The notes: generated from the sequence alone by a model not told the origin. Shown: positions 33,822 through 48,857, counted from the first letter of the stretch. The stretch is DNA of 64,000 nucleotides from Acidobacteria bacterium RIFCSPLOWO2_02_FULL_67_21 (GCA_001767195.1 MEKU01000007.1:53488-117487), one strand, 5' to 3'. A program made the numbers and translations.

Positions 33822-33841
33822 GGGGGCAAGGGAGCAAGGGG
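33821..33841 (+). repeat. G-rich repeat copy (GGGGGCAAGGGAGCAAGGGG)
   Basis: The same 20-mer occurs on the opposite strand at 39363-39382. Confidence 0.75.
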
Positions 33842-33845
33842 TTAG

Positions 33846-34865
33846 GTGAAGAAGCTGCGTATCTTGGCGCTGGTTCACGAGCATCTCGTGCCCCCCGCCG
33901 ACACGTCGGGGATCGATGTGCGCGAGGCCGAGTGGAAGATGGAGTACGACGTCATCGAGACGCTCAAGGAGATGGGGCACAGCCTGCGCGTGCTCGGCCT
34001 TCACGACGACCTCGGTGGCATCCGCGCGACCGTCGGGCTCTTCAAGCCGCACATTGTCTTCAACCTGATGGAAGCGTTCGCGGGGATTACGACGTACGAC
34101 CAGAACGTCGTGAGCTATCTCGAGCTGCTCCAGCTGCCGTACACCGGCTGCAACCCCCGCGGCCTCATCCTTGCGCGCGACAAGGCGCTCTCGAAGAAGC
34201 TGCTCGCCTATCACCGCATCGCCGTCCCCGACTTCACCGTCGTCCGGCACGGCCGCCGCGCGCGGCTCTCGAAGCGGATGCGCTTTCCGCTGATTGTGAA
34301 GTCGCTCTTCTTCGAAGCGTCGGCCGGCATCTCGCAGGCCTCGGTCGTGGAGAACGAGGACCAGCTGGAGCGCCGCGTCCAGTTCATCCACGACAGCCTC
34401 GGCACCGCCGCCATCGTCGAGCAGTTCGTCGACGGCCGCGAGCTGTACGTTGGCGTCCTCGGCAACGAACGGCTCGAGGTCTTTCCGGTGTGGGAGATGT
34501 CGTTCGACCAGATGCCGGAGAACCGGTGGCGAATCGCCACCGAGCGCGTCAAGTGGAGCACGAAATACCAGAAACGCCACGGCATCATGACCGATGCCGC
34601 CGCGCTCCCCCACGACGTCGCGGACCGCATCCAGCGCATCGCCAGGCGCACGTACAGGGCGCTCGATTTGAGCGGGTACGCCCGCATCGACCTCCGCATG
34701 AACGAGGACGGCCGCGTGTTCGTGCTCGAGGCCAACCCGAATCCGAACCTCGCCTACGGTGAAGATTTTGCGGAGTCGGCCGAGGTCAGGGGCGTCTCCT
34801 ACGAGCGGCTGCTCGAACGCATCCTTGCGCTGGGCCTCCGCTGGGAACCTGCCAGAACCGGATAA
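33846..34865 (+). CDS. ATP-grasp protein of the D-alanine--D-alanine ligase family
   Basis: ATP-grasp fold motifs (FPLIVKS, VEQFVDGRELYVGVLG, ARIDLRMNEDGRVFVLEANPNP). GTG start. Confidence 0.75.
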   Translation: MKKLRILALVHEHLVPPADTSGIDVREAEWKMEYDVIETLKEMGHSLRVLGLHDDLGGIRATVGLFKPHIVFNLMEAFAGITTYDQNVVSYLELLQLPYTGCNPRGLILARDKALSKKLLAYHRIAVPDFTVVRHGRRARLSKRMRFPLIVKSLFFEASAGISQASVVENEDQLERRVQFIHDSLGTAAIVEQFVDGRELYVGVLGNERLEVFPVWEMSFDQMPENRWRIATERVKWSTKYQKRHGIMTDAAALPHDVADRIQRIARRTYRALDLSGYARIDLRMNEDGRVFVLEANPNPNLAYGEDFAESAEVRGVSYERLLERILALGLRWEPARTG

Positions 34866-34949
34866 CCACGAAGTTCACGAAGACCGCGAAGGCCACGAAG
34901 CCCCGATTGATTCTTTCGTGTTCTTCGAGACCTTCGTGCCTTCGTGGTT
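34864..34949. repeat. Long imperfect hairpin built of CACGAAG units and their complement; terminator-like
   Basis: aaccacgaagttcacgaagaccgcgaaggccacgaag ...loop... ctttcgtgttcttcgagaccttcgtgccttcgtggtt. Confidence 0.55.
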
Positions 34950-35011
34950 CTGAGGTTTTGAGGCATAATTCCGGGCCTCGGTGCTCATATTCACTGCGCA
35001 GGAGGAAGACG

Positions 35012-35848
35012 ATGATCCGGTTGTGTTGGAGCCGCGCGGGAGCGGCAATCGGCCTGCTGATGCTGCTGGCGGCCCCGGGGGCCGCGCAGGCGCCGGCCCA
35101 GGCAGACGAGTTCGTCCCGCAGGTCGGCCAGGCGGGCAAGGACGTGGTCTGGGTGCCGACACCGCCCGAACTGGTCGAGGCGATGCTCGACCTCGCCAAG
35201 GTCACGCCGCAGGACTACGTGATGGACCTCGGCTCCGGCGACGGCCGCAACGTCATTGCGGCGGCCAGGCGCGGCGCGCGGGCGCTCGGCGTCGAGTTCA
35301 ACCCGAAGATGGTGGCGCTCTCGCTGCGCAACGCGGCCGCGGCCGGCGTCGCCGCGCGGGCGACGTTCGTCGAGGGCGACATGTACAAGGCCGACATCTC
35401 GCAGGCCTCGGTGATGGCGCTCTTTCTGCTGCCGAGCAACATGCTCGAGCTGCGGTCGAGGTTCCTCGACCTGAAGCCGGGGAGCCGCATCGTGGCGAAC
35501 ACCTTCGGGATCGAAGGCTGGACGCCCGACGAAACCGTCAGCATCTCGGACAAGGGCTGCTCGGCCTGGTGCACGGCCCTGCTCTGGATCGTGCCCGCGA
35601 GGGTGGCAGGCAACTGGCGTCTCGGCAACCAGCCGCTCGTGCTCAGCCAGGAATACCAGATGGTCAGCGGGATGCTCGACGGCGCGCCGATTGCCGACGG
35701 CAAGCTGCGCGGCGATCGGATCCGCTTCACCGTGGGGACGACCGAATACACCGGGCGCGTCAGCGGCAATCGCATGGAAGGCACCGCACGGGCCGCCGGC
35801 ACGGGCACCCCGTGGACGGCCACGCGCGGCAATCTGGACGCGAGATGA
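35012..35848 (+). CDS. Class I SAM-dependent methyltransferase with an N-terminal signal peptide
   Basis: GGAGGA SD before ATG 35012. Signal MIRLCWSRAGAAIGLLMLLAAPGAAQA. MTase motif VMDLGSGDGRNV...ALGVEFNP...FVEGDM. Confidence 0.65.
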   Translation: MIRLCWSRAGAAIGLLMLLAAPGAAQAPAQADEFVPQVGQAGKDVVWVPTPPELVEAMLDLAKVTPQDYVMDLGSGDGRNVIAAARRGARALGVEFNPKMVALSLRNAAAAGVAARATFVEGDMYKADISQASVMALFLLPSNMLELRSRFLDLKPGSRIVANTFGIEGWTPDETVSISDKGCSAWCTALLWIVPARVAGNWRLGNQPLVLSQEYQMVSGMLDGAPIADGKLRGDRIRFTVGTTEYTGRVSGNRMEGTARAAGTGTPWTATRGNLDAR

Positions 35849-36112: not shown

Positions 36113-37222
36113 ATGCGCGCTCGACTGCTCGTCACGATCGCCGTTCTGGCGGCGGCCGGCACGCTGCCGGCCGCGCAGGGACGCACGACGCTCGACATCT
36201 ACGTCGTCGACGTGGAAGGGGGGAACGCCACCCTGTTCGTCACGCCGGCCGGCGAGTCGGTGCTGATTGACGCCGGCAACGGCGGCCCTGCCGCCGCCCG
36301 CGACGCGGGACGCATTCTGGATGCCGCCCGCGACGCCGGGCTGACCCGGATCGACCATCACATCACCACGCACTGGCATGGCGATCACTTCGGCGCCCTC
36401 GAAGCGCTCGCCAGGCAGATCCCAATCGGCGCCTACTACGATCACGGGCCGACGATCCAGCCACAGCCGGCATCGACCGAGTTTCTCGACACGGTCTACC
36501 CGGCGCTCGTGGCCAGGGCCAGGCGCGTCATCGTCAAACCGGGCGATCGCCTGCCCCTCAAGGGGGTTGAGTGGCGTGTCGTGACATCGGGCGGGCAGGT
36601 GATCCCGTCGAACCTGCCCGGCGGTGGAGCCTCGAATCCCTACTGCGCGGCGTTCACACCGCAGGCGGTCGATACGAGCGAGAACGCGCAGTCGGTCGGA
36701 AGCCATGTCATGTTCGGGAAGTTCCGGGCGGTCCATCCGGGCGACCTGACGTGGAACAAGGAAGCCGAGCTCATGTGTCCGGCCAACCGGCTCGGAACCG
36801 CCGACCTGCTGATTGTCGGCCATCACGGCCAGGCGGTCTCGAACTCCGAGGTGCTCGTCCACGCGCTGCAGCCGCGCGTATCGATCATCAACAACGGAAC
36901 GCGCAAGGGCGGGCAGCCCGACGCGATGCGCATCATCCTCAATTCCCCCGGCCTCGAGGACGTCTGGCAGGCGCACTTCTCGCTCCTCAGCGGCCAGGAG
37001 TACACCGTGCCGGGGCTGTTCATCGCCAACCCCTTCGACGAACAGCCGGACGCGCTGCCGATCGGCGCGTGGACGCCGCCGCCCCAGGGGCAGCAGCCGC
37101 CGGCGCCACCGGTGCACAACGGGAAGGCGTTCTGGTTCAAGGTCCGCGCGCAGGCCGACGGCACGTTTACGGTCACCAACGCGCGCAACGGGTTCACCAG
37201 GACGTATCGGGCGGGGATGTAG
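36113..37222 (+). CDS. MBL-fold metallo-hydrolase (ComEC/Rec2-related lactamase_B type), secreted
   Basis: AGGAGA SD, a signal peptide and the THWHGDH motif. Confidence 0.7.
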   Translation: MRARLLVTIAVLAAAGTLPAAQGRTTLDIYVVDVEGGNATLFVTPAGESVLIDAGNGGPAAARDAGRILDAARDAGLTRIDHHITTHWHGDHFGALEALARQIPIGAYYDHGPTIQPQPASTEFLDTVYPALVARARRVIVKPGDRLPLKGVEWRVVTSGGQVIPSNLPGGGASNPYCAAFTPQAVDTSENAQSVGSHVMFGKFRAVHPGDLTWNKEAELMCPANRLGTADLLIVGHHGQAVSNSEVLVHALQPRVSIINNGTRKGGQPDAMRIILNSPGLEDVWQAHFSLLSGQEYTVPGLFIANPFDEQPDALPIGAWTPPPQGQQPPAPPVHNGKAFWFKVRAQADGTFTVTNARNGFTRTYRAGM

Positions 37223-37272: not shown

Positions 37273-38328
37273 ATGAGCAGGACTCTTGGTGCGCTGCTGG
37301 CGATCGCCGCCGTCGTGCTCGGTGCGTCGATCGGCGCACAGCAGCCGCAACAGCCGCAGCGGCCGCCACAGGCCGCAGCCGCGCCGCCGGCGCCGATTCC
37401 GGCCGGCCTGCCGGAGTGGGCGTACGCACCCCCGGTGCCGGGCGCCCCGCCGCCCACGTCGGCGCTGCCGGCCGACGACAGCGTCGTGTTGAAGATTCCC
37501 GGCAGCCTCGTCGCGCTCACCCGCGGGCAGGTCCGCGGCCTGCTCGAGATCCCCGACTGGTTTCCAAACGAGCACGGCCCGATGCCCACGATCGTCCGAT
37601 ACGGCCGCAGCACCGAAGACGCGCGGGCCTGCGGGTTCTGCCACCTCGCAGACGGCGGCGGCCGTCCTGAGAACGCTCCCGTGAGCGGGCTGCACCCGGC
37701 CTACTTCCTCCAGCAGATGGAGGACTTCAAGAACGGGCTTCGACGCAGCGCGGACCCTCGGAAGGCCAACACGAACAACATGATCCGGTTTGCCACCAAC
37801 CTCAGGCCGGACGAGGCACGGTCGGCCGCCGAGTATTTCGCGCAGCAGCCGCACCCCAGGCAGATCACCGTCATCGAGCGCACTGAGGTCCCGAAGACGC
37901 GCCTCCAGGGCGGCATGCACATGGCCATACAGGGTGAAGGCGCCGGCACCGAACCGATCGGCGAGCGGATCGTCGAAGTGCCGGATGACGCGTTCAGGGC
38001 GGAAGCGCGGGATACCCACATCAGCTACACCGCGTATGTTCCCGCCGGCAGCCTGGCCGCCGGCAGAGCCCTCGTCGAGAAATACAGCTGCGCCGTGTGC
38101 CACGGGCGGGCGCTCGAAGGCAACGGCCCGATCCCGCCGATCGCGGGACGCTCCCCGAGCTACACGATGCGCCAGTTGTTCGACATGAAGGCCGGCACGC
38201 GCAAGGGGCCCTGGTCCGAGGTGATGAAGCCGGTCGTCCAGGCGATGTCGGTGAAGGATCTGATGAACGTCTCGGCTTATGCGGCGTCGCTCGATCCCGG
38301 CGGCAGAGGCGCCGCGGGCACTCGCTGA
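37273..38328 (+). CDS. Dihaem c-type cytochrome, secreted
   Basis: AAGGAGGA SD, a signal peptide and two CxxCH motifs (CGFCH, CAVCH). Confidence 0.75.
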   Translation: MSRTLGALLAIAAVVLGASIGAQQPQQPQRPPQAAAAPPAPIPAGLPEWAYAPPVPGAPPPTSALPADDSVVLKIPGSLVALTRGQVRGLLEIPDWFPNEHGPMPTIVRYGRSTEDARACGFCHLADGGGRPENAPVSGLHPAYFLQQMEDFKNGLRRSADPRKANTNNMIRFATNLRPDEARSAAEYFAQQPHPRQITVIERTEVPKTRLQGGMHMAIQGEGAGTEPIGERIVEVPDDAFRAEARDTHISYTAYVPAGSLAAGRALVEKYSCAVCHGRALEGNGPIPPIAGRSPSYTMRQLFDMKAGTRKGPWSEVMKPVVQAMSVKDLMNVSAYAASLDPGGRGAAGTR

Positions 38329-38341
38329 GCTGACGCCCGAA

Positions 38342-38397
38342 GGGGGTCGTCAGGGGGCCAGGGATTAGGGTCGCTTGCCCCCTGACCCCTCGCCCCC
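38342..38397. repeat. G-rich/C-rich inverted repeat hairpin between convergent genes
   Basis: gggggtcgtcagggggc ...18 nt... gccccctgacccctcgccccc. Confidence 0.6.
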
Positions 38398-38406
38398 TAC
38401 TCTGCT

Positions 38407-39246
38407 CTACTTCGCAGCTTCCCCTTCGAACGGCAAATCGAACGAGACGTGCACGGCCTTGTTGCCCTCGCACACCGCGCTCTCCCACTGCTCCTGCGGC
38501 TTGTTCCGGCGAATCGCCATCGCAAGCTTCCACGGCCGTGCGTACACCTTCGGGTCCTCGATCGTGGCGACATAGTCGATCTGATCCGGCTGAGCGAACG
38601 TATACCGCTCGGTCACGCGCAGGGCGTCGCTGTGAAAACTGCCGACGATGTCGAACCAGGTCTCGGCGTTGTTGTTGGTGACCTCGACGACCAGCGTATT
38701 GCCCTCCCAGCGGCCGCGTGAGTAGCCCATCCACAGCTTGAGCGATTCGCTCGGCACGGGCTGGCCGTCCAGGTGGATGACGCGGTAATGGTGGCCGTAC
38801 TCCCAGAGCTGCACGATGTAGCCCGGCTTCTGGACGATCCGCATCCCGGACTGATAGAGGATGCGCGGCATCCCCTGCATGAAGCAGCGCACCACCGGGT
38901 CGAGATTCTCCAGTTTCTGCGGAGCCCGGTGCTCCTGATTGAGGTACTTCGCGCGCTCCAGCGTCGCCGGGGCGTACGGAATCATGCCGTCCGGAGGGTC
39001 GACGATCGGACGGCCGAACTGGGTCGCCTGACCGCCGAGCCGCGTGTGCTCTTCCCGGTCGATGGCGCCCGCCTGAATGCTGTAGGTCGTGATGTCGCTC
39101 TGCTCGCTCCAGAAGCCTTCGATGTTCGGCTGGCCGTCCGCCGTCCGCGGCGGGCTCCACGGAGCGGCCGTCTGGGCGAACGCACGCGGGGTGAGGACGA
39201 ACGACACGGCTACGAGTACAACGCTGAATCCAAGGAAACGTTTCAC
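38407..39246 (-). CDS. Secreted hypothetical protein, paralog 1 of a 3-member family
   Basis: AGGAG SD before a GTG start, and a signal peptide. Long identity blocks with 39913-40758 (TTYSIQAGAIDREEHTR, SRGRWEGNTLVV, WFDIVGSFHSDA, IDYVATIEDPKVY, AVCEGNKAVHV). Confidence 0.7.
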   Translation of the reverse strand: MKRFLGFSVVLVAVSFVLTPRAFAQTAAPWSPPRTADGQPNIEGFWSEQSDITTYSIQAGAIDREEHTRLGGQATQFGRPIVDPPDGMIPYAPATLERAKYLNQEHRAPQKLENLDPVVRCFMQGMPRILYQSGMRIVQKPGYIVQLWEYGHHYRVIHLDGQPVPSESLKLWMGYSRGRWEGNTLVVEVTNNNAETWFDIVGSFHSDALRVTERYTFAQPDQIDYVATIEDPKVYARPWKLAMAIRRNKPQEQWESAVCEGNKAVHVSFDLPFEGEAAK

Positions 39247-39290
39247 GCGGCGTGCTCCTGAAAGAAGGGAAGGTCTGGTGGGTATTGTAC

Positions 39291-39390
39291 TCAGGGATCA
39301 GGGAGCGGGGAACAGGGATCAGGAAATCAGGGATCGGGGGGTCAGGGGGCTAGGGGAAAAATCCCCTTGCTCCCTTGCCCCCTTCTAGAC
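39291..39390. repeat. Degenerate tandem heptamer array (TCAGGGA x ~9) ending in a G-rich/C-rich hairpin with an A5 loop
   Basis: tcaggga tcaggga gcgggga acaggga tcaggaa atcaggga tcgggggg tcaggggg ctagggg aaaaa tcccct tgctccc ttgccccc. Confidence 0.7.
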
Positions 39391-39890
39391 GGTGCCGCTG
39401 GTCGCCCGCGCCGAGCGAGTAATCCTCGCCGAGCGGCGGCGGAACGTCGAAGGTGACCTGGTCCAGGCCGCTTCTCGGATTCGGCTGGCCGTCGTAGTAC
39501 CACCCGAGGCCGTAGGTCGCCGACGCCTGCCACCGATCGCTGAAGCGCTTGGTGACCGACATGTCGGCCGCATGCCGGTTGTTCCAGCCCTCGAACACGT
39601 CCATCGGCACGGCCGCCCAGTTCGGGAACGGACGCCGTGAGATGTCGGTCGAGAGCACCCGCTGGACGTTCGCGAACCGAATCGGTGCGCCACCTGGTTG
39701 ATCAGCCAGGAGTAGTACTTCCCGACGCCGCCGCGGACGACCGTCCGGTCGTTCACGCTGTACGCAAAGCCGAAGCGCGGCTGGATGTTGTCGGTGTCGA
39801 GCGGCCGATCCGCCTCGAGGAACGGCTCGACAGCCAGCTCGTCGGCGAACGTGTCGGTCTCGACGTCTGGACGCGACTGATTTGATTCAG
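39350..39890 (-). pseudogene. Relic of a second CarboxypepD_reg/TonB-dependent receptor paralog
   Basis: RPDVETDTFADELAVEPFLEADRPLDTDNIQPRFGFAYSVNDRTVVRGGVGKYYSWLINQVAH, then after a frameshift and deletion, TDISRRPFPNWAAVPMDVFEGWNN..RWQASATY..PLGEDYSLGAGDQRHR. These align to the intact receptor 40919-43840. The relic is truncated at both ends. Confidence 0.75.
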
Positions 39891-39912
39891 GAGCGGAGTA
39901 TCTGGAAGTCTG

Positions 39913-40758
39913 CTACCGGTCGAATGGCAGGTCGAACGCCACGTGCACGGCTTTGTTCCCTTCGCACACCGCGTTCTCCCAGTGCTCTTCCGCCTCGTTG
40001 CGCCCGAGCTCCACGTACAGCTTCCAGGGCTGCGTGTAGACCTTCGGATCCTCAATCGTGGCCACGTAGTCGATGCGGCTCTTGTCCACGAACGTCCATC
40101 GCTCGGTGACCTTCATCGCGTCGCTGTGGAAGCTGCCGACGATGTCGAACCAGCTCTTGTCGTTCTGGTTGGTGACATCGACGACCAGCGTGTTCCCCTC
40201 CCAGCGGCCGCGGGAATCGCCCATCCAGAGCTTCAGGCCGTCGCCGACCGCGGGACGCCCGTCCAGGTACACGACGCGGTAGTGATGGCCGTACTCGTGC
40301 AGCATGACGATCTGATCGGGGAACTGCAGAATGCGCACCTCGCCCTGATACACGATCCGGGGAACGCCTTCCTGCAAGCACCGCGAGACCGGGTCCAGGT
40401 TTTCGGGCTTTGACGGTCCGCGGTGCTGCAGGTTGAGATACTTGGCCCGCTCCTGCGCCCACGGCTGGTACGGAATCATGCCGTCCTTCGGATCGATGAT
40501 CGGCCGCCCGAAGGCCGTCGCCTGGCCGCCGATCCGCGTGTGCTCTTCGCGATCGATGGCGCCGGCCTGGATGCTGTACGTGGTGATGTTGCTGCGCTGG
40601 CTCCAGGAGCCCTGGATGTCAGGCTGGCCGTTCGCCGTCCGTGGTGGATCCCACGGCTTGACCGGGGCCGGCATCGCCTGTCCCGATACGGCGGGTGCCG
40701 TCGCCCAAGCTCCGGCAATTGCGAGCGCAAGAACTGACCCGAGGCAACGGTATCCCAC
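39913..40758 (-). CDS. Secreted hypothetical protein, paralog 2
   Basis: AAGGAG SD before GTG 40758, and a signal peptide. See paralog 1. Confidence 0.7.
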   Translation of the reverse strand: MGYRCLGSVLALAIAGAWATAPAVSGQAMPAPVKPWDPPRTANGQPDIQGSWSQRSNITTYSIQAGAIDREEHTRIGGQATAFGRPIIDPKDGMIPYQPWAQERAKYLNLQHRGPSKPENLDPVSRCLQEGVPRIVYQGEVRILQFPDQIVMLHEYGHHYRVVYLDGRPAVGDGLKLWMGDSRGRWEGNTLVVDVTNQNDKSWFDIVGSFHSDAMKVTERWTFVDKSRIDYVATIEDPKVYTQPWKLYVELGRNEAEEHWENAVCEGNKAVHVAFDLPFDR

Positions 40759-40918
40759 ACCGGCTCCTTTCTGCAGTCGCCTGCACCACCTGTGCTTTCG
40801 CGAGATTTTAGGAGCGCGCCGCAAGGCTGTCAAGCAAGCAGGCCGCCGCCCCGCCGCCTGGTGGGTGGGCGGGTCCGCCGGAGACTCGGTCGCAACGACC
40901 GGCGGACCCGCCGAGGAT

Positions 40919-43840
40919 CTAGAACGCGAAGCGGAGCCCCACCTGCATCATGCGCGGCTGGTAGGCCACGTTCGGGTTGTACGTCGGCCGGCCGTAGTTC
41001 CGGTTGCTTTCCGCCGTGGTGTACGACCCGAAGTTTTCGTGATTGAAGATGTTGAACACCTCGATCATGCCGTCGATGGTCGCACGGCCGACGAGCCTGG
41101 TGCGCTTCATCAACCGCAGGTCCACGCGCTGCAGCGGGTCGCCCACGAGGTTGTTGCGCGGCGTCACGCCGCCGCCGGCGCTCGCCGGCCTGGCGCGGGT
41201 GCTCCCGGTCGTGGTCCCGGTGTTCAACGCATCGCCGCCGTACGTGGTGGCGAACCGCTGGCCGGAGCCGAAGAAGTAGAGTCCGCTCAGCTGGAGTCCG
41301 TACGGCAGCTGCCAGATGCCGTTGAAGACCGCCCGGTGCCGCTGATCGGACGCCGCCAGGCCGTACTGCTCACCCAGTGGATCCGCAACGGCAAACGGGA
41401 TGGTCCCCATGACGCCGCTCCACGGCTCCGGGGTGCCGTCCCGGAATGCCGAGATCGTGTACGTCGCCGACGCCTGCCAGTTGCTGCTCATCCGCTTCGT
41501 CAGCGCGACATCGACCCCGTGGAAATTGCTCCATCCGTCGAATCGGTCCATCGGCACCTGGCCCCACGCCGGGTAAGGGCGCCGGCTGATGTCCGCGAAG
41601 CGGTAGTTCAGCTGCGTCTCTGGGTTGAAACTCAGATTGATGTTGTAGCCGGTGACGCGCGTCTGGCGCTCGCCGGTGTACGCATAGTCCACCGACACGC
41701 CGAGCGTCTCGCCGAGCTGCCGCTGCATACCGATCGACGCCTGGTAACTGTAGGGCGTCTCGGCGTCGGGCGGCACGATCGTCTGGCCGAGGGCCCGCCG
41801 GATGCAGCCGGGCACGAAGTTGACGTTGCAGAACGCCTGCTCGAGGTCCTCAGCCTTGGGCAGCGGGCCGTTCCAGGGGTTCACGGCAAAGTCGGCCCGG
41901 CCATCGTTGAACACCGAGAGCACGCGCTGCACGTTGGCGAACCGCACCGGGTGCGCCGTCTGGTTCAGGAGCCACGCGTAGTACTTGCCGGCGCCGCCGC
42001 GAATCACCGTCCGGTCGTTGAGGCTGTAGGCAAACCCGAGCCGCGGCACGAAGTTGTCGGTGTCGTTCGGCCGACCCGCCGGCAGGAACTCCGCCACGCC
42101 CAGCTCGTTCGCGAAGACGTCGGTCTCGAAGTCGTACCGCAGGCCGATGTTGACCGTCAGGCGCGACCCGATGCGCCAGTCGTCCTGGAACCAGCCGCCA
42201 AAGATGTTCCGCGGGCTGTGAATGATGCAGTTGCCGAACGAGGCGCGGTACTCGCGGGCAATCGGCGAGAGGGCCGCGATGTTGAAGGTGCTCGGATCGT
42301 TCCACACCGGGAAGAGCTGCTCGATGTTGGCGGGAATCGGCCCCGCATCGACGAACAGATTTCCGCGCAGCGTATTGCACCAGTCGTGCCACGTCAGGTA
42401 CTTGAGGTATTCGCCGCCGAACCGGAGGTCGTGCCGCCCACCGGCATCCATGGCGAACGTGAAGTCGTCGCGCAGCGTGTACACGTCCTGGCCGATGTTC
42501 TGCGGGAAGTTGGCCCCGCCGCCGATGTTGAAGCCCCGGAAGGTGAAGACCGGCATGTACTGGCTCTGATTAGCCACCGGATTCCGCGCGCCGTTGAGCG
42601 GCAGACTGCTTCCCCACGCCTTGATGTTGGGATCCTGCAGCCACCGGTTCGCCGCCCAGCCGACCTTGATCTCGTTGAACGCACGATTGCTGAGGATCTG
42701 GGTGAACGTGCCTTGCACCGCCTCGGCGTACTTGTCGTTCGAGATCTGGTTGATCGGATGGTTGGACGATCCGCCGATCGTCCCCTGCGTGCTGTCAATC
42801 GGCGTGAAGTCGCGCCACAGCCAGCTCGAGACGCTCATGCGCAACGCCGAGGACAGCTGCGCGTCGAGGCGCAACGTCGGTTTGTGCTGCTTGCGGTTGT
42901 TCGGCAGGTCGATGTTGAAGCTCGGGTACGGGGTGTCGTGTGTCACCGTGGCCGGCTCGCGCTCGTACTCGTAGTTGAAGAAGAAATGCATCCGATCGCG
43001 GCGGATCGGCCCGCCCGCGGTCGTGCTGATCTGCTGGTTCGAGTACGGCAGCACCCGCTGCTGAATGAAATCCTCGGCGTTCATGCTGTCGTTCCGGAAG
43101 TATCCCGACAGCGTCCCGGACGGCGTATTCGTCCCGGACTTGGTGATCACATTCACCTGCACGCCCGACGAACGCCCCTGCGTGGCGTCGAAGCGATTGG
43201 AGATGAACTGGAACTCCGCGATCGCGTCGCGACTGAAGCCCGGCTGGCGCCCCTCGGTGCCGCAGCAATTGTTGGTGACCTGCAGGCCGTCGATGTTCAA
43301 CTGCACCGTGCCGAGCCCTGTCGTCACGGGCAGCCCGCCGGCGTTCGAATGGTTCGCACGCGAGCCGGGCGCCATCAGCGTCAGGTCCAGAAAGTTGCGC
43401 CCGTTCACCGGCAGCTCCGAGAGCTGCCGCGAGTCGATGTTGCCGCCGAGCTGTGAGGAGGTCACATTGACGAGCGGTGCCTCGCCGGTCACCGTCACCG
43501 TCTCCTGCACCGTCGACGGCGCCAGTTGCAGGTTGACCAGCGCCTGCTGGCCGACAAGCACGGTGAGCCCGCTCCGTACGACGTTCGCAAAGCCTGGAAG
43601 CTGCGCCGTCATCCGGTACACGCCGACGCGCACCGGAATGCGATAGAGGCCGCGCTCGTCAGTGATGCCTTCGAAGGTGTTGCCGGTTGCCTCGTGTACC
43701 GCCACGATGGTCACGCCGGGCAGCACGGCGCCCGTGGAGTCGGTCACCGTCCCGCCGATCGTCGCCTCCTGCGCGTAGCCGGCTGCCGGCAGCACCGCGA
43801 CGGCCGCGACCGCGAATATCCACCGAAATGCACGTCCCAT
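40919..43840 (-). CDS. TonB-dependent receptor-like outer-membrane protein with an N-terminal carboxypeptidase-regulatory-like domain
   Basis: AAGGAG SD before ATG 43840, and a signal peptide. GTVTDSTGAVLPGVTIVAVHEATG...RGLYRIP (CarboxypepD_reg), a plug-like region (LPVNGRNFLDL) and a C-terminal beta-barrel ending in F. Confidence 0.8.
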   Translation of the reverse strand: MGRAFRWIFAVAAVAVLPAAGYAQEATIGGTVTDSTGAVLPGVTIVAVHEATGNTFEGITDERGLYRIPVRVGVYRMTAQLPGFANVVRSGLTVLVGQQALVNLQLAPSTVQETVTVTGEAPLVNVTSSQLGGNIDSRQLSELPVNGRNFLDLTLMAPGSRANHSNAGGLPVTTGLGTVQLNIDGLQVTNNCCGTEGRQPGFSRDAIAEFQFISNRFDATQGRSSGVQVNVITKSGTNTPSGTLSGYFRNDSMNAEDFIQQRVLPYSNQQISTTAGGPIRRDRMHFFFNYEYEREPATVTHDTPYPSFNIDLPNNRKQHKPTLRLDAQLSSALRMSVSSWLWRDFTPIDSTQGTIGGSSNHPINQISNDKYAEAVQGTFTQILSNRAFNEIKVGWAANRWLQDPNIKAWGSSLPLNGARNPVANQSQYMPVFTFRGFNIGGGANFPQNIGQDVYTLRDDFTFAMDAGGRHDLRFGGEYLKYLTWHDWCNTLRGNLFVDAGPIPANIEQLFPVWNDPSTFNIAALSPIAREYRASFGNCIIHSPRNIFGGWFQDDWRIGSRLTVNIGLRYDFETDVFANELGVAEFLPAGRPNDTDNFVPRLGFAYSLNDRTVIRGGAGKYYAWLLNQTAHPVRFANVQRVLSVFNDGRADFAVNPWNGPLPKAEDLEQAFCNVNFVPGCIRRALGQTIVPPDAETPYSYQASIGMQRQLGETLGVSVDYAYTGERQTRVTGYNINLSFNPETQLNYRFADISRRPYPAWGQVPMDRFDGWSNFHGVDVALTKRMSSNWQASATYTISAFRDGTPEPWSGVMGTIPFAVADPLGEQYGLAASDQRHRAVFNGIWQLPYGLQLSGLYFFGSGQRFATTYGGDALNTGTTTGSTRARPASAGGGVTPRNNLVGDPLQRVDLRLMKRTRLVGRATIDGMIEVFNIFNHENFGSYTTAESNRNYGRPTYNPNVAYQPRMMQVGLRFAF

Positions 43841-44088
43841 TCTGGCGCTCCTTCCGTAGGCCTTTCGTTGTGAGCCAGCCGACGTTCCATGACGAATCCG
43901 GGGCGAATGATGGCGCTGCGGTCGAGACAGCGTCTGTTTACGCCTCTGGGAGGGCGCGCGCAATACAGTTGTTCTTCAGCGGAAACTCAGGGTTCTGACT
44001 GTGCGGAATTACCGGATGCGTGGCGGGGTGACTCCGGTCAGGACCGGAGACTCATGGGCGGCGGAGGGGAGAGCGAGTCTGGGCCGGG

Positions 44089-44937
44089 CTATCTGGCCTG
44101 CTTGGCAGCCTGGCTCTCGAGCCAGAGCTCCATCGACTTGTTCCCCTCGACGCAGGCGTCCTCCCACTGTTCGTACCCGCGCTCCGCACGGGCAAACCCG
44201 CGGATCCTGATCGTCCACGGACGCGTGAACGCCTTCGGGTCCGTCATCGTCGCCTCGTAGCCAATCGTCTTGGGGTCGTTGAACGTCCACCGCTCAACCA
44301 CCCGCATCGCGTCGCTATGGATGCCGCCGACGATGTCGAACCAGGTCCTGTCGTTGAGGTTCGTCACGTCCACCACGAGCGTGTTGCCGTCCCACCGCCC
44401 CCGGGAATCGCCCATGAAGAGCTTGACCGTTTCCGGAAGCCTCGGCCGGGTATCGAGCGGGATCACGCGGTACACGTGCTGGAACTCGTGAATCATGACG
44501 ACGTAGCCCGGCGGCTGGACGATCCGGATCACGTTGCCCCCCTGGTAGTTGACACGGGGCACACCCGAGGGGAAGCAGCCGCGCGTCATCGGATCGATGT
44601 AGTCGACGCTCGGCGCGTCGGTGTGCTTCTCGAAGATGTCCTGGCGCCGGGCCGCGGCCCACGGCTGATACGGAATCTTGCCGTCAGGCGGGTCGACGAC
44701 GAGGCCTTTCGCGTCGGTAATCTGGCCGGTGATCTGGAGGTGCACGCGGCGATGGTCGTCGCCCCCCTCAATGCTGTACGTGGTCGCGCCGCCGCGGCCC
44801 GTGTAGACGCCTTCGACGTCCGGTTGTCCGTCGGCCCGGCGCGGCGGATCCCACGACGTCGCCTGCGTCTGCGCCGCGGCCAGTCCGGGCGCGCCCAGCG
44901 CAATCACGACCGTGAGCACAGCGAACAACCGACCCAT
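44089..44937 (-). CDS. Secreted hypothetical protein, paralog 3 (more divergent)
   Basis: AAGGAGG SD before ATG 44937, and a signal peptide. Retains DSRGRWDGNTLVVDVTNLNDRTWFDIVGGIHSDAMRVVERWTF. Confidence 0.7.
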   Translation of the reverse strand: MGRLFAVLTVVIALGAPGLAAAQTQATSWDPPRRADGQPDVEGVYTGRGGATTYSIEGGDDHRRVHLQITGQITDAKGLVVDPPDGKIPYQPWAAARRQDIFEKHTDAPSVDYIDPMTRGCFPSGVPRVNYQGGNVIRIVQPPGYVVMIHEFQHVYRVIPLDTRPRLPETVKLFMGDSRGRWDGNTLVVDVTNLNDRTWFDIVGGIHSDAMRVVERWTFNDPKTIGYEATMTDPKAFTRPWTIRIRGFARAERGYEQWEDACVEGNKSMELWLESQAAKQAR

Positions 44938-45062: not shown

Positions 45063-47351
45063 ATGCATCGATGCCCCGGCCGAGTGCGCCTGACCTGTAC
45101 GACTGTCCTGCTGACGGCGGTTGCTGCCGCCGCGGCGGCACAGGGCCCGCAGATCGCTGGCATCGAAGGTCCGCCGCCTCCTGCCCCGCCCGACACGATC
45201 GCCCGCGACGAACAGGGCCGTGCCACCGTCCGGGCGACGCGGCTGACGGCGCCGCTCCGCCTCGACGGACGCCTCGACGATGAAATCTATGGAGTGGTGC
45301 GGGGCGCCGGCGGCTTCATCCAGCAGGAACCGCGCGAGGGGCAGCCGGCCACGGAGCAGACCGAGATCTGGATCTTCTTCGACGACAGGAACGTCTATGT
45401 CGCCGCGCGCTGCTGGGACAGCGGCGACCCCGCGCAGTGGGTGGTCAACGAGCTGCAGCGCGACGGCGACGTGACGCAGAACGAAAGCCTCTCGATTCAG
45501 TTCGACACGTTCTACGACCGCCGGAACGGCGTCTTCTTCCAGTCTTCGCCCGCCGGCGCGCTGCGCGATCAGGCGTTCACCGACGAGGGGAACCAGAACC
45601 TCAGCTGGAACGCCGTCTGGGACGTCCGCGCGGCGCGGTTCGACGGCGGGTGGTCGTACGAAATGGTCATCCCGTTCAAGTCGCTGCGCTATGCGGAATC
45701 GGGACCACAGGTCTGGGGCGTGCAACTGCGCCGCATCGTCAAATGGAAGAACGAGGTCTCGTTTCTGACGCGGGTACCGAATGCGTACGGCATGCAGGGG
45801 CCGTTCTATGCCTCGGTCTTCGGCACGCTGGTCGGCCTGGAGACGCCCGCCCGGTCCGTGAACCTCGACGTCAAGCCGTATCTGGCCTCGGCGCTCACGA
45901 CGGATCGCGCGGCGGCTGCACCCTACAGCAATGACTTCTCGCCGAACGCCGGATTCGATATCAAGTACGGCCTCTCCCGCAGCCTGACGGCCGATGTCAC
46001 CTACAACACGGACTTCGCGCAGGTCGAAGAGGACGTACAGCAGGTGAACCTCACGCGCTTCAGCCTGTTCTTTCCAGAAAAGCGCGAGTTCTTCCTCGAG
46101 GGGCAGGGCATCTTCGCGTTCGGGGGCGCCAGCGTGACCGGGTTTGGCGGCGGGACCGCGGCCAACGACGTGCCGATCCTCTTCTTCAGCCGCCGCATCG
46201 GGCTCAGCCAGGGGCAGGCGGTGCCGGTCGTCGCCGGCGGGCGCGTCACGGGCAAGGCGGGCGCCTTCAGCCTCGGCGCGCTCAACATCTCCACCGACGA
46301 CAAGCCGTCGGCCCGCGCGCTGGCCACCAGCTTCAGCGTGCTCCGGCTGAAGCGCGACGTGCTGCGGCGGAGCGCCGTCGGCCTGATCGCCGCGCACCGG
46401 TCCCGCACCATGGCCGACACCGGGTCGAACCTGACGCTCGGCGTGGACGCGAACCTGCAGTTCTTCCGGAACGTGTCCGTCACGAGCTACGTCGCACGGA
46501 CCGACACAGCGGGGCTCCGCGGCGACGACACGAGCTACCGCGCGCAGTTCGACTACGCCGCCGATCGGTACGGCGTGATGGCGGAGCGGGTGATGGTCGG
46601 CGAGCACTTCAATCCGGAAGTCGGGTTCACGCGGCGCACCGATTTCAGGCGCGACAGCGCGCTGCTGCGGTTCAGCCCGCGGCCGGGCGGGAGCCGCGCG
46701 GTCCGCAAGTACACCTGGCAGGCCACCTATGACTACGTCACCGACGCCGCGGGGGCGAGCCTCGAGAACCGGGATATCAAGGGAACGTTCCGGACCGACT
46801 TCAACAGCAGCGACAGCTGGTCGGTCGACTACACGCGCTCGCTGGAACAGCTCCCGACGCCGTTCGAGATTTCGCCAGGCGTCAGGCTGCCCGCAGGCGC
46901 CTATCGGTACCAGTTTGCCCGCACGCAGTACGGCTTCGGGCAGCAGCGGATCCTGTCGGGCCGCCTGTCGGCCTCCCGCGGGTCGTTCTACAACGGGGAC
47001 CGGACGGAGTTCGGCATCGGCGCCGGCCGCGTCAACCTGTCGCCGCATTTCTCGGTGGAGCCCAGCCTCACGCTGAACTGGGTCGATCTGCCGCAGGGCC
47101 GCTTCACACAGCGCCTGATCACCGCGCGAACCATCATCATGCCATCGCCGCGTATGGCGATCAGCAGCCTCGTCCAGTACAACGCCACGAACAGCACGCT
47201 GAGCTCGAGCGCGCGCCTCCGCTGGGAGTACACGCCGGGCAGCGAGCTGTTCGTCGTGTACAGCGAAGGGCGCGACACGCTCACGCGCGGCACGCCCGAG
47301 CTGCTGAATCGATCGTTTATCGTGAAGATCACCCGCCTGCTGCGGTTCTAG
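45063..47351 (+). CDS. CBM9-like / DUF5916 family outer-membrane-associated protein
   Basis: Signal peptide. The N-terminal region (FIQQEPREGQPATEQTEIWIFFDDRNVYVAARCWD...) and the long beta-rich C-terminus are as remembered for DUF5916 proteins. Confidence 0.6.
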   Translation: MHRCPGRVRLTCTTVLLTAVAAAAAAQGPQIAGIEGPPPPAPPDTIARDEQGRATVRATRLTAPLRLDGRLDDEIYGVVRGAGGFIQQEPREGQPATEQTEIWIFFDDRNVYVAARCWDSGDPAQWVVNELQRDGDVTQNESLSIQFDTFYDRRNGVFFQSSPAGALRDQAFTDEGNQNLSWNAVWDVRAARFDGGWSYEMVIPFKSLRYAESGPQVWGVQLRRIVKWKNEVSFLTRVPNAYGMQGPFYASVFGTLVGLETPARSVNLDVKPYLASALTTDRAAAAPYSNDFSPNAGFDIKYGLSRSLTADVTYNTDFAQVEEDVQQVNLTRFSLFFPEKREFFLEGQGIFAFGGASVTGFGGGTAANDVPILFFSRRIGLSQGQAVPVVAGGRVTGKAGAFSLGALNISTDDKPSARALATSFSVLRLKRDVLRRSAVGLIAAHRSRTMADTGSNLTLGVDANLQFFRNVSVTSYVARTDTAGLRGDDTSYRAQFDYAADRYGVMAERVMVGEHFNPEVGFTRRTDFRRDSALLRFSPRPGGSRAVRKYTWQATYDYVTDAAGASLENRDIKGTFRTDFNSSDSWSVDYTRSLEQLPTPFEISPGVRLPAGAYRYQFARTQYGFGQQRILSGRLSASRGSFYNGDRTEFGIGAGRVNLSPHFSVEPSLTLNWVDLPQGRFTQRLITARTIIMPSPRMAISSLVQYNATNSTLSSSARLRWEYTPGSELFVVYSEGRDTLTRGTPELLNRSFIVKITRLLRF

Positions 47352-47579: not shown

Positions 47580-48857
47580 GTGAGCAACGCGCGGCGCGTC
47601 GCGCTGGCCAGCGCGGTCGGCACGACGATCGAGTGGTACGACTTCTTCATCTACGGTACGGCGGCGGCGGTCGTCTTCGCGCCGCAGTTCTTTCCCCAGA
47701 TCTCGCCGCTCGCCGGCACGCTCGCCTCCTTCGCCACCTTCGCCATCGGGTTCGTCGCGCGGCCGCTCGGCGGCATCGTCATGGGCCATCTGGGCGATCG
47801 CGTGGGACGGCGCTCGACGCTCGTCTGGTGCCTGATGCTGATGGGAGGCTCGACGCTGGCCATCGGGCTGCTGCCGAACTACGCCACGATCGGCCTCTGG
47901 GCCCCGATCCTGCTGGTGGCGTGCCGCTTCGTTCAGGGGTTCGCGCTCGGCGGTGAATGGGGCGGCGCAGTGCTGATGTCGGTCGAGCACGCCCCGCGCC
48001 ATCGCCGCGGCTATTACGGCAGCTTCGTCGCCCTGGGGCTGCCGGCGGGGATCATCCTCTCGAATCTCGTCTTCCTGCTCGCCTCGACGCTGGTGACGCC
48101 CGCCGAGTTTGCGGCGTGGGCGTGGCGCGTGCCGTTCCTCGCCAGCGTGGTCCTCGTGGCGGTCGGGCTGTACGTCCGGCTCGGGCTCGCGGAAAGTCCG
48201 GTCTTCGAGGCGGCGCTCCGTGCCGGCGCCCCCCGGCGCCTTCCCGTCGTCGACGTCCTGCGGACCAACGGGCACACGGTGCTGCTGGCGGCCGGCAGCT
48301 ATCTCGCCATCAGCGCACTCGGCTACCTGGTCATCGTCTACTTCGTCTCGTACGCGACCGGCGAGCTCGGGTTCCCGCTGACCACGACGCTCGGGCTGCT
48401 GCTCGTGGCGGCGGTGGCGTTTGCCTGCTCGATTCTCGCCTTTGCGGTCTGGTCCGACCGGCTCGGCCGGCAGCGCATCATGCGGTGGAGCAACGCCGCG
48501 CTCATCCTCTGGGCGCTCCTGTTCTTTCCGCTGATCGACACGCGCTCGGTGCTGCTCGCCGGCGTGGCCGTGTGCGGGATGCTGCTCGCCCAGGGCGCCT
48601 ACATCGGGCCGCAGGCGGCGGTCTTCGCGGAGCTCTTTCCGACGGCCGTGCGCTATAGCGGCGTGTCGCTGAGCCTGACGCTCGGCACCATCTTCGGGGG
48701 CGCAATTGCCCCGTTCGTGGCCACCGCGCTCTTCAGCGCAACGGGCCGGTCGACGCTCGTGACGATCTACGGCGCGACGCTCGCGGTCATCTCGTGGTTG
48801 TGCGTGCGCGGGCTCACCGAAACGTATCGGCGGGATCTGACCGAAGCGCAGTCCTAA
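47580..48857 (+). CDS. MFS transporter, metabolite:H+ symporter (MHS) type
   Basis: GTTIEWYDFFIYGTAA and GHLGDRVGRR are motifs typical of ProP/KgtP-like MHS carriers. GTG start. Confidence 0.8.
   Translation: MSNARRVALASAVGTTIEWYDFFIYGTAAAVVFAPQFFPQISPLAGTLASFATFAIGFVARPLGGIVMGHLGDRVGRRSTLVWCLMLMGGSTLAIGLLPNYATIGLWAPILLVACRFVQGFALGGEWGGAVLMSVEHAPRHRRGYYGSFVALGLPAGIILSNLVFLLASTLVTPAEFAAWAWRVPFLASVVLVAVGLYVRLGLAESPVFEAALRAGAPRRLPVVDVLRTNGHTVLLAAGSYLAISALGYLVIVYFVSYATGELGFPLTTTLGLLLVAAVAFACSILAFAVWSDRLGRQRIMRWSNAALILWALLFFPLIDTRSVLLAGVAVCGMLLAQGAYIGPQAAVFAELFPTAVRYSGVSLSLTLGTIFGGAIAPFVATALFSATGRSTLVTIYGATLAVISWLCVRGLTETYRRDLTEAQS

Follow-up and report, generated by a model that had tools for sequence, protein, structure and literature searches.

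SusD is an all-alpha, tetratricopeptide repeat (TPR)-like lipoprotein from the polysaccharide utilization loci of Bacteroidota, and it is always encoded directly after SusC, its TonB-dependent receptor (TBDR). We examined a locus with some of the same features, on the minus strand (38407–44937) of a 64-kb stretch of DNA from Acidobacteria bacterium RIFCSPLOWO2_02_FULL_67_21, which we call the window. In the direction of transcription, this locus encodes a small protein (P3), a TBDR of 973 amino acids, a second small protein (P2), the relic of another receptor, and a third small protein (P1). P1, P2, and P3 are paralogs from a family without a name, which we refer to as F. As in the SusC/SusD systems, the gene for an exported accessory protein lies beside a TBDR that has a CarboxypepD_reg-like N-terminal extension, the partners are multiplied many times per genome, and genes for processing glycans or other substrates are nearby. 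Across genomes, we found that modules of F genes are about fourfold enriched beside TBDRs of two architectures, and that they are not obligatorily placed there. Our tentative reading, with a probability of roughly 45%, is that F is an exported ligand-handling (and possibly enzymatic) component of loci for TonB-dependent uptake and periplasmic oxidation. TBDRs are among the most expanded gene families of soil Acidobacteriota, and for nearly all of these receptors neither the substrate nor a helper protein is known. With more than 15,000 clusters, and with links to both receptor architectures across three phyla, F is a concrete candidate for a missing accessory component.

The likeness to SusD does not extend to the proteins themselves. 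The predicted structure of F is mostly beta instead of all-alpha, and the F proteins have no lipobox and no match to the SusD domains in Pfam. Also, F is adjacent to a receptor in just 20 of the 79 loci that we analyzed, and its steadier partners are its own paralogs and DUF6152. On every count that we examined (the lipobox, the fold, the Pfam domain, and constant placement beside a receptor), F thus differs from SusD. This agrees with a preliminary description of the locus, made from the sequence of the window, which considered the small proteins to be unrelated to SusD.

Two other groups of proteins have some resemblance to F. Many of the calycins (lipocalins, FABP/UnaG, SAHS, nitrophorins, and Blc) are exported, and they usually surround a small ligand that is hydrophobic or a tetrapyrrole. 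Their eight-stranded antiparallel barrel of ~125 residues is the only structural match to F, and it is a weak one (E ≥ 3e-3). Unlike F, the calycins lack any counterpart of the ~100 conserved residues at F's N terminus, and F and the calycins have no sequence similarity. The lobes of TbpB and LbpB, as well as the HphA-type hemophores, combine an N-terminal handle with an eight-stranded barrel, and they are lipoproteins or Slam-dependent. F broadly resembles them in its gross architecture and in its genomic proximity to a TBDR. On the other hand, DUF560 is not among the 25 commonest families in three sets of neighbors of F, and none of these proteins is among the top 50 Foldseek matches.

The receptor in the window has its own closest relatives. 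The Oar subclass of TonB-dependent transporters is defined by a PF13620 N-terminal extension, and in Myxococcus xanthus, Oar is required for the secretion of the protease PopC (PMC6434023). Like Oar, the window's receptor has the PF13620 extension and a large barrel; this likeness concerns the receptor and not F. Pfam does not detect a Plug domain in the window's receptor, and a role for it in export rather than import would be no more than an analogy to Oar. PopC is subtilisin-like and is unrelated to F.

To describe the gene neighborhoods of F, we used the best-scoring 80 of at least 596 F loci in species-representative genomes. These were picked with peptide patterns derived from F-B, a subfamily of F, and 79 of them were usable. 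Genes were called with a home-made caller that considers the GC content at the third codon position (GC3) over sliding windows. Compared to the public gene calls for the window, the GC3 caller reproduced most genes and placed several start codons too far downstream. Receptors and other classes of genes were assigned with hidden Markov models (HMMs) that we built for this analysis. Because we used a best-scoring subset, patterns derived from F-B, and a home-made gene caller, the percentages below are approximate.

By clustering, we distinguished three subfamilies: F-A (~256–270 amino acids), which is usually encoded first; F-B (~280–290 amino acids), which is usually second; and a third type of ~320 amino acids. 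Usually, two or three diverged paralogs (F-A, F-B, and F-C) are encoded together in the same direction, often with a gene for DUF6152. Runs of two to four F genes are present at 52/79 loci (66%). DUF6152 is by far the commonest family to flank these runs (50 of the 186 flanks that were scanned with Pfam), and it lies inside the module at 44/79 loci (56%). If the F and DUF6152 genes are counted as one module, and if both Oar-type and classical receptors are considered, then a receptor immediately flanks the module at 20 loci (25%) and lies within two genes of it at 25 loci (32%). Receptors account for 22 of the 191 genes at distance 1 from the module versus 16 of the 539 genes at a distance of 4 or more (odds ratio 4.3, Fisher p = 2.8e-5). 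A narrower count, with only the Oar-type receptors and with DUF6152 considered as an outside flank, is an under-count; it gave 15% adjacency and an odds ratio of 2.8.

The adjacency recurs with unrelated flanking genes and in different orientations (loci L004, L012, L015, L016, L024, L037–L039, L059, and L074). In Acidobacteriota, the link is to Oar-type receptors. It also recurs in another phylum with a different type of receptor (L034, L048, L058, L064, and L080): a classical Plug-and-barrel receptor is beside the module at 5/9 proteobacterial loci. The pattern in the Proteobacteria is TBDR, DUF6152, F, F, and in Derxia and Methylococcales this continues with two DUF6644 genes and a gene for a cytochrome c'-like protein. 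Across the loci, further co-directional neighbors encode NHL or SGL propellers, cytochromes c, metallo-beta-lactamase (MBL)-fold proteins, pyrroloquinoline quinone (PQQ) dehydrogenases, alpha/beta hydrolases, the tannase-like DUF6351, and glyoxalase-fold proteins.

Among the closest relatives of P1, we looked up eight proteins that are 60–66% identical to it on long metagenome contigs. Five of these contigs (L087–L091) have a conserved cluster: an NmrA-like epimerase, F-A (~270 amino acids), F-B (~277 amino acids), a CarboxypepD_reg receptor (~975 amino acids), a cytochrome c (~120 amino acids), a protein with CarboxypepD_reg and a Vgb_lyase/SGL propeller (~612 amino acids, and sometimes fused to a cytochrome), and an MBL-fold protein (~357 amino acids). 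Beyond the MBL gene, L089 and L090 also have a CytoC_RC-type cytochrome, and the contig of L091 ends before the MBL gene is reached. In all five of these clusters, F-B is directly followed by the receptor, with a gap of 29–141 bp. Thus, the receptor immediately follows F-B in 5 of the 8 look-ups, with weaker evidence in two more. The sixth look-up is cut off: F-A and F-B are followed by a truncated gene. In L085, the order is TBDR, F-A, F-B, glyoxalase, TBDR, cytochrome c, and propeller; in L086, it is a CBM9/DUF5916 protein, DUF1501, DUF1800, F-A, F-B, and MBL. Because L087–L091 share their flanking genes, they represent one evolutionary lineage. We also considered orthologs of P3 (65–79% identity) on two long contigs. 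These lie after a glyoxalase-fold gene, and genes for PQQ dehydrogenases, for cytochromes, and for additional F or DUF6152 proteins are in the vicinity.

Within the window, P1 (38407–39246, minus strand) is an open reading frame (ORF) for an F-B type protein of 279 amino acids, with the Shine-Dalgarno (SD) sequence AGGAG and a signal peptide that ends in PRAFA, before QT. P2 (39913–40758, minus strand) is also of the F-B type and has 281 amino acids if translated from the GTG at 40758. P2's ORF extends to 40833, and this GTG is most likely the start codon: it is 5 nucleotides past the SD sequence AAAGGAG, and it yields the signal peptide MGYRCLGSVLALAIAGAWATAPAVSGQA. We considered two alternatives to be less likely, which were a long version starting from the TTG at 40833 and the public gene call of 253 amino acids, which would strip P2 of its signal peptide. 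P3 (44089–44937, minus strand) is a diverged F-B-like protein of 282 amino acids with the SD sequence AAGGAGG and a signal peptide that ends in GLAAA, before QT. These features bear out the preliminary description, which gave each of the small proteins its own SD sequence and signal peptide and considered them to be secreted.

None of the three proteins has a lipobox, and their signal peptides are of the signal peptidase I type (Sec). Each mature protein contains exactly two cysteines, at the family-conserved positions C121 and C258/259, and these are probably joined by a disulfide bond, as would be consistent with export. So, as judged from their sequences, P1, P2, and P3 are Sec-exported, and probably disulfide-stabilized, soluble proteins from a very large uncharacterized envelope family.

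In a full-length alignment of the three paralogs, P1 and P2 are 66–70% identical and P3 is 48–51% identical to either of them. Every block that the preliminary description quoted as shared by P1 and P2 is in this alignment, and it was also right that P3 is diverged. At the DNA level, P1 and P2 are 72% identical, P3 is 62% identical to either, and the longest identical run is 22 nucleotides. These values imply that the duplications are old, and they rule out a recent duplication or gene conversion among the three genes. All three proteins cluster with the F-B subfamily (48–77% identity to F-B proteins). Compared to the F-B proteins of the conserved cluster, P1 is 61–67% identical, P2 is 72–77% identical (L085–L091), and P3 is ~50% identical. 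P1 and P2 are orthologs or paralogs of F-B, and P3 is less closely related. Identity to F-A is lower, at 37–41% for P1 and 34–37% for P3, and it is within 34–42% for all three. We did not find any other member of family F in the 64-kb window. The exact P1 protein (P0001 in our set) is present on 12 contigs, the complete arrangement of the window, including the relic, is present on four independent metagenome contigs, and there are orthologs of P3 at 65–91% identity.

The intact Oar-type receptor (40919–43840, minus strand) has 973 amino acids from the ATG at 43840, in an ORF that extends to 43963, with the SD sequence GGAAGGAG and a signal peptide. Its Pfam matches are CarboxypepD_reg (PF13620; E = 6.9e-17, residues 68–147), OMP_b-brl_4 (PF25183; E = 2.7e-91), and TonB_dep_Rec_b-barrel (PF00593; E = 4.9e-8). 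The Plug domain (PF07715) has no match at E ≤ 10, whether we searched with the whole protein or with residues 100–350; in L085, a relative of this receptor does match Plug, though weakly. By its sequence, with a PF13620 N-terminal extension and a TonB-dependent transporter barrel, the window's receptor fits the definition of the Oar subclass. With the conserved cluster's receptor it shares 71–74% identity, and the two are orthologs.

The relic (~39390–39867, minus strand; identified with tblastn and blastn) is a pseudogene fragment of a second CarboxypepD_reg-type TBDR, and it lies in the 666-bp spacer between P2 and P1. By tblastn, it matches residues 609–684 of the intact receptor at 70% identity, with an internal frameshift, and residues 791–877 at 56% identity. 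So, relative to the intact receptor, it has lost the first 608 residues, residues 685–790, and about the last 137 residues. The two stretches are 79% and 65% identical to the intact receptor's DNA (blastn). Against the cluster receptors of related genomes, the two segments are 73–84% and 55–61% identical, which makes the relic marginally nearer to those receptors than to its intact neighbor. All of the elements of the preliminary description (three paralogs, an intact receptor, and a relic) are therefore present where it placed them, as confirmed by ORFs, Pfam, and tblastn.

We compared the window to the conserved cluster. Orthologs of F-B and of the receptor are present; the gene order and the full set of genes are not matched. 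In the window, the MBL and cytochrome c genes are on the opposite strand and are convergent with P1, and the DUF5916 gene is divergent from P3. We did not find F-A in the window, so it lacks the canonical pair of F-A followed by F-B. Nor did we find DUF6644 in the window, or DUF6152, for which we searched a six-frame translation of the 64 kb with the HMM. No propeller gene was called within 10 kb on either side of the locus, which is the part of the window that was checked for one. Because the window has orthologs of F-B and the receptor, with MBL and cytochrome c genes nearby, it reads as a rearranged version of the conserved Vicinamibacterales-type cluster (F-A, F-B, TBDR, cytochrome c, CarboxypepD_reg-propeller, MBL, and cytochrome). 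Apparently, the unit of F-B and receptor was duplicated in the window long ago, and one copy of the receptor has since decayed. The order within the duplicated unit could have been either of two. The identities of P1 to P2 (70%) and of the relic to the receptor (56–70%) fit a unit of receptor then F, and the placement of P2 before the relic mirrors the cluster's order of F-B then receptor.

Within the window, the gap from P3 to the receptor is 248 bp, and that from the receptor to P2 is 160 bp. Directly 3' of the receptor's stop codon is a stem-loop (40868–40912, minus strand) with a perfect 14-bp GC stem and no T-run (−35.5 kcal/mol; z = −2.96 versus shuffled sequences), which is a possible terminator or RNA-stabilizing element. 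Farther on, 47 nucleotides upstream of the start of P2, is a sigma-70-like promoter match (TTGACA-17-TAAAAT, 40805–40833, minus strand) that agrees with the consensus at 11 of 12 positions. This is the sole such match in 7.4 kb (0.5 expected); it is a match to a consensus only, and the promoters of Acidobacteriota are poorly known. Because of the hairpin after the receptor and the promoter-like site before P2, the genes look as if they are transcribed separately. These consensus-level indications suggest that the locus is divided into several transcription units and is not a single operon, in contrast to the tightly packed genes of L087–L091. The preliminary description had proposed a two-gene cassette repeated in tandem: the copies and the relic are indeed there, but as genes that seem to belong to separate transcription units. 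Another stem-loop (38349–38386; −39 kcal/mol, z = −2.57) is between the convergent stop codons of P1 and the cytochrome c gene. Both stem-loops are GC-rich and lack T-runs, and they may be of a terminator type that is common in high-GC genomes.

Family F is large. We found 15,440 representatives of 50%-identity clusters at E ≤ 1e-3 (8,288 at E ≤ 1e-10), and 5,349 clusters at 90% identity are within word-sharing reach of P1. The best 80 loci are from Acidobacteriota (Vicinamibacterales, Bryobacterales, and Terriglobia), Gemmatimonadaceae, and Pseudomonadota (Cellvibrio, Methylococcales, Derxia, and Sphingobium). A genome can contain several F loci: a single metagenome-assembled genome (MAG) accounts for 5 of the 80 that were kept. 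Nearly all F loci are from diderm phyla (Acidobacteriota, Gemmatimonadota, and Pseudomonadota). Locus L046 (CAVSOA010000007.1), from a MAG labelled as Solirubrobacterales (Actinomycetota), has an F gene, DUF6152 genes, and an Oar-type TBDR. These would be unexpected in a monoderm, so contamination of the bin or misclassification is likely.

The preliminary description could not assign this family, and neither could we. There is no match in Pfam, even at E ≤ 10, for P1, P2, P3, an F-A protein, or an F-C protein; there is no match in NCBIfam for the F proteins; a family-profile search against the sequences in the PDB had zero matches at E ≤ 10; and there is no Foldseek match in the PDB at E ≤ 1e-3. 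In RefSeq, an F homolog is labelled as "hypothetical protein," and a plasmid collection contained only distant matches (25–29% identity) that are annotated as hypothetical. The one candidate that we considered, Dioxygenase_C, matched just two members (E = 9.1e-5 without a significant domain, and E = 0.15). We rejected it because the matches do not reach the gathering score (22.4 bits versus a cut-off of 27.3) and fall on a strand motif, G-x-L-V-V-x-V-T.

AlphaFold2's model of P1 has a pLDDT of 81.5 and a pTM of 0.77. The pLDDT is ~86–98 in the core and drops to 58–69 in two blocks within residues 111–130. The N-terminal part is modelled with short helices, and eight beta-strands follow within residues 134–248. 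The top matches from Foldseek are ligand-binding calycin barrels (SAHS, UnaG, FABP6, and nitrophorins). Because these cover only ~125 residues, the N-terminal ~100 residues of F have no structural counterpart, and this region includes the strongly conserved motifs DGxPDxxGxW, IPYxPWA, and C...GxPR. The predicted fold is thus a helical or extended N-terminal part followed by a C-terminal, eight-stranded, calycin-like barrel. From the model, membership of F in the calycin superfamily is plausible.

We compared 226 diverse members of the family and noted the positions that are conserved in 90% of them or more (numbered as in P1). In the N-terminal half, these are G38, P40, and G44 (within DGxPDxxGxW), P90 (within IPYxPWA), C121, and G125. 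The middle of the protein has Q139, R155, G174 and G178 (within a GDSRG motif), W180, G182, T184, L185, and V186, and the C-terminal part has G202, E213, R214, Y225, D231, P238, E255, and C258. In addition, H152, H205, D199, N191, and N193 are invariant within the F-B clade. Most of the F proteins have plain signal peptides, and ~13% of the 226 have a lipobox-like motif.

A few members of the family have unusual architectures. P0161 and P0186 have an N-terminal CarboxypepD_reg domain, which is also found at the head of the receptor and of the cluster's beta-propeller protein; this suggests a shared role in docking or sorting. P0094, a single case from a 1.7-kb contig, is fused to an HbpS-like heme-degrading domain, and HbpS is not a recurrent neighbor of F. 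A subgroup of 456–494 amino acids (P0285–P0300, P0308, and P0336) is 39–45% identical to P3 and has ~200 extra residues without a precomputed Pfam domain. Finally, P0122 (528 amino acids) appears to carry two F domains in tandem.

The mature form of DUF6152 (PF19649), the most frequent neighbor of F, is predicted to begin with His-His, which is invariant and is followed by a conserved S/A-F; an NPH motif is invariant as well. The genes that we examined were L093:10399-10794 and 62 genes across L001–L080, with none in the window. The predicted structure (pLDDT 79) is an oligonucleotide/oligosaccharide-binding (OB) fold, and its Foldseek matches are to generic OB folds. These include the periplasmic silver/copper chaperone SilF (8bbz; target TM-score 0.69, root-mean-square deviation 3.6 Å, 14% identity), but tRNA synthetase and single-stranded DNA-binding (SSB) domains rank above it. 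Like CusF and SilF, DUF6152 (and not F) is modelled as a small periplasmic OB-fold protein that superposes on SilF, and it has invariant histidines. In contrast to DUF6152, CusF binds copper or silver via Met, His, and Trp, and not via an N-terminal His-His. Judging from the model, DUF6152 may be an unrecognized periplasmic metallochaperone. This lead concerns the canonical module and not, directly, the locus in the window.

In some genomes, the F/DUF6152 module is accompanied by two adjacent genes for DUF6644 membrane proteins (L034:10823-12459, L069:10844-12384, and L092:4604-6097). These pairs are from Derxia and Methylococcales, which both have a small cytochrome c'-like gene as well, and from a Novosphingobium plasmid, where the corresponding gene encodes a hypothetical protein that was not scanned. 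In a literature search, we found no paper that mentions DUF6152, DUF6644, PF19649, or PF20349, and no paper that joins "carboxypeptidase regulatory-like," TonB-dependent, and Acidobacteria.

What might the F proteins do? Given a calycin-like barrel in the setting of receptors and periplasmic enzymes, ligand binding is the most plausible inference. We speculate that the barrel binds a small molecule, or a metal complex of it, that the receptor carries across the outer membrane, and that F would then hold this molecule or present it to periplasmic redox and hydrolytic enzymes. The multiplication of the paralogs, like that of the receptors, would reflect diversified ligand specificity. Several observations weigh against this proposal. 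No receptor is adjacent at 75% of the loci, or on the two long contigs with P3 orthologs, and the neighborhood percentages are approximate to begin with. The matches to calycins are weak (E from 3e-3 to 9e-2, with TM-scores of 0.44–0.47 relative to the target and ~0.25 relative to the query). Conserved charged residues (R155, E213, R214, D231, and E255) would suit catalysis as well as binding, and the genes in the window appear to be separately transcribed. In particular, the pairing of F with a receptor is not obligate, as it had looked to the preliminary description: other F genes (66% of loci) and DUF6152 (56%) are steadier companions. As for that description's suggestion that F is a dedicated partner of the receptor, the link is real (odds ratio 4.3, and 5 of 8 close relatives), but adjacency is not a requirement. 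Could the link be due to chance, with F beside receptors because TBDRs are so numerous in Acidobacteriota, and with a local segmental duplication that copied both? TBDR-like genes are ~3% of genes even far from the module, most loci and the P3 orthologs lack an adjacent receptor, and the syntenic clusters are from one lineage. However, the enrichment is between distances 1 and ≥ 4 within the same loci (p = 2.8e-5), the adjacency recurs with unrelated flanks and orientations and in another phylum with another type of receptor, and the gene order has been kept at ~62% protein identity. These make the absence of any functional link quite improbable.

Alternatively, F proteins could be periplasmic enzymes, such as a hydrolase, lyase, isomerase, or cyclase on a calycin barrel, that act on imported organic compounds, with a link to the receptor only at the level of the pathway or regulon. 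That most loci lack an adjacent receptor would fit this reading. Polar residues are conserved across the family (Q139, R155, E213, R214, D231, and E255) and more so within F-B (H152, H205, D199, N191, and N193), most of the neighbors are enzymes (a glyoxalase-fold protein directly upstream of the P3 orthologs, PQQ dehydrogenases, MBL, SGL/NHL, DUF6351, and alpha/beta hydrolases), and the Foldseek matches include the OlmO spirocyclase and a de novo retro-aldolase scaffold. On the other hand, F has no sequence similarity to any enzyme family, as the sole matches are the sub-threshold ones to Dioxygenase_C (22.4 bits versus 27.3). The histidines are not conserved across the whole family. In addition, diverged paralogs that come in seemingly obligate sets of two or three are more characteristic of hetero-oligomeric proteins with a binding or structural role than of enzymes that catalyze a single step. 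We consider an enzymatic role of this kind to be unlikely, if far from negligible. A role in the uptake or redox chemistry of copper, iron, another metal, or a metallophore, with F and DUF6152 as periplasmic metal carriers, seems improbable. It would account for the frequency of DUF6152 (50/186 flanks and 56% of loci), for DUF6152's invariant His-His and NPH and the match of its OB-fold model to SilF (among others), and for the two DUF6644 membrane proteins and cytochrome c'-like protein in the proteobacterial modules; TBDRs and cytochromes also suit metal uptake and reduction. But DUF6152 and DUF6644 were not found in the window, the OB matches are generic (with tRNA synthetase and SSB above SilF), no known genes for metal regulators or metal transporters recur nearby, and F has no conserved cluster of His, Cys, or Met besides the two cysteines that are presumably disulfide-bonded. 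It is very improbable that F acts at or beyond the outer membrane, either as a surface scavenger that feeds the receptor (by the logic of a hemophore, TbpB, or SusD) or as a cargo that is exported by an Oar-type receptor, as PopC is in Myxococcus. The receptor's PF13620 extension is the defining feature of the Oar subclass, some F members (P0161 and P0186) share the CarboxypepD_reg domain, a lipobox-like motif is seen in ~13% of the 226 proteins, there is a fusion to an HbpS-like domain, and a barrel with an N-terminal "handle" recalls surface proteins that are partners of receptors. Yet in Proteobacteria the module has just as much of a link to classical receptors, which lack the extension, the window's proteins have plain Sec signal peptides, neither Slam/DUF560 nor another export factor is a recurrent neighbor, no structure of the TbpB, HasA, or HmuY type is among the Foldseek matches, and the fusion to HbpS was seen only once, on a contig of 1.7 kb. 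A broader version of the ligand-handling proposal is doubtful but worth stating: sets of F-A and F-B (and F-C), DUF6152, paired DUF6644, small c-type cytochromes, and a TBDR might form a previously unrecognized envelope system in Acidobacteriota, Gemmatimonadota, and Pseudomonadota. Its substrate would be redox-active or carry a metal, and it would be captured at the outer membrane and processed in the periplasm. An F hetero-oligomer would be the core carrier, and the window would be a lineage-specific variant without DUF6152 and F-A.

The preliminary description had named two findings that would speak against it, namely a known domain in F and a lack of enrichment beside receptors. We looked at both and found no known domain and a clear enrichment. 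F remains an unnamed family, and the new facts about it are its size, its organization in sets of paralogs, its association with DUF6152, DUF6644, cytochromes, and MBL proteins, and the Vicinamibacterales-type cluster as the source of the window's arrangement. F also connects DUF6152, DUF6644, and DUF5916, three further families without a known function. Should the link to receptors hold, F would offer a handle for predicting what the TBDRs import and how periplasmic cytochromes, MBL-fold proteins, and propeller enzymes are supplied. The interest would grow if the multi-family envelope system proves to be real. Even without the link to receptors, the size and strong conservation of F would justify a curated model.

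Among the other genes in the window, those for MBL, cytochrome c, and DUF5916 recur in related loci. The dihaem cytochrome c (37273–38328, plus strand; 351 amino acids) is convergent with P1, has two CXXCH motifs, matches Pfam's Cytochrom_C / Cytochrome_CBB3, and is cytochrome c4-like according to a search of PDB sequences. Beside it is an exported MBL-fold protein (36113–37222, plus strand; 369 amino acids; Pfam Lactamase_B), which the preliminary description did not mention. MBL genes are among the commonest flanking genes of family F, and they are found in L086–L090 and in L093. On the other side of the locus, an ORF of 762 amino acids (45063–47351, plus strand) encodes the DUF5916 protein (Pfam, E = 2.9e-18) and is divergent from P3. 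DUF5916 is also found beside F genes in L086 (L086:22-2247, with CBM9_1) and in two of the flanks that were scanned with Pfam. In the window, the DUF5916 gene is followed by that of a major facilitator superfamily (MFS) transporter of the metabolite/H+ symporter (MHS) family (47580–48857, plus strand; 425 amino acids; Pfam Sugar_tr/MFS_1; NCBIfam TIGR00883, E = 2.7e-124), which is not a recurrent neighbor of F genes at other loci. The preliminary description was thus correct about the DUF5916, MHS, and dihaem cytochrome neighbors. Scans of the window for tRNAs and Rfam families were negative. At 32796–35848, adjacent genes encode a Peptidase_Mx-like protein, an ATP-grasp enzyme (D-Ala-D-Ala ligase C / RimK-like), and a methyltransferase. 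These adjoin genes for an M3 peptidase, an arginase, and an amine oxidase, and they appear to be unrelated to the F/receptor locus.

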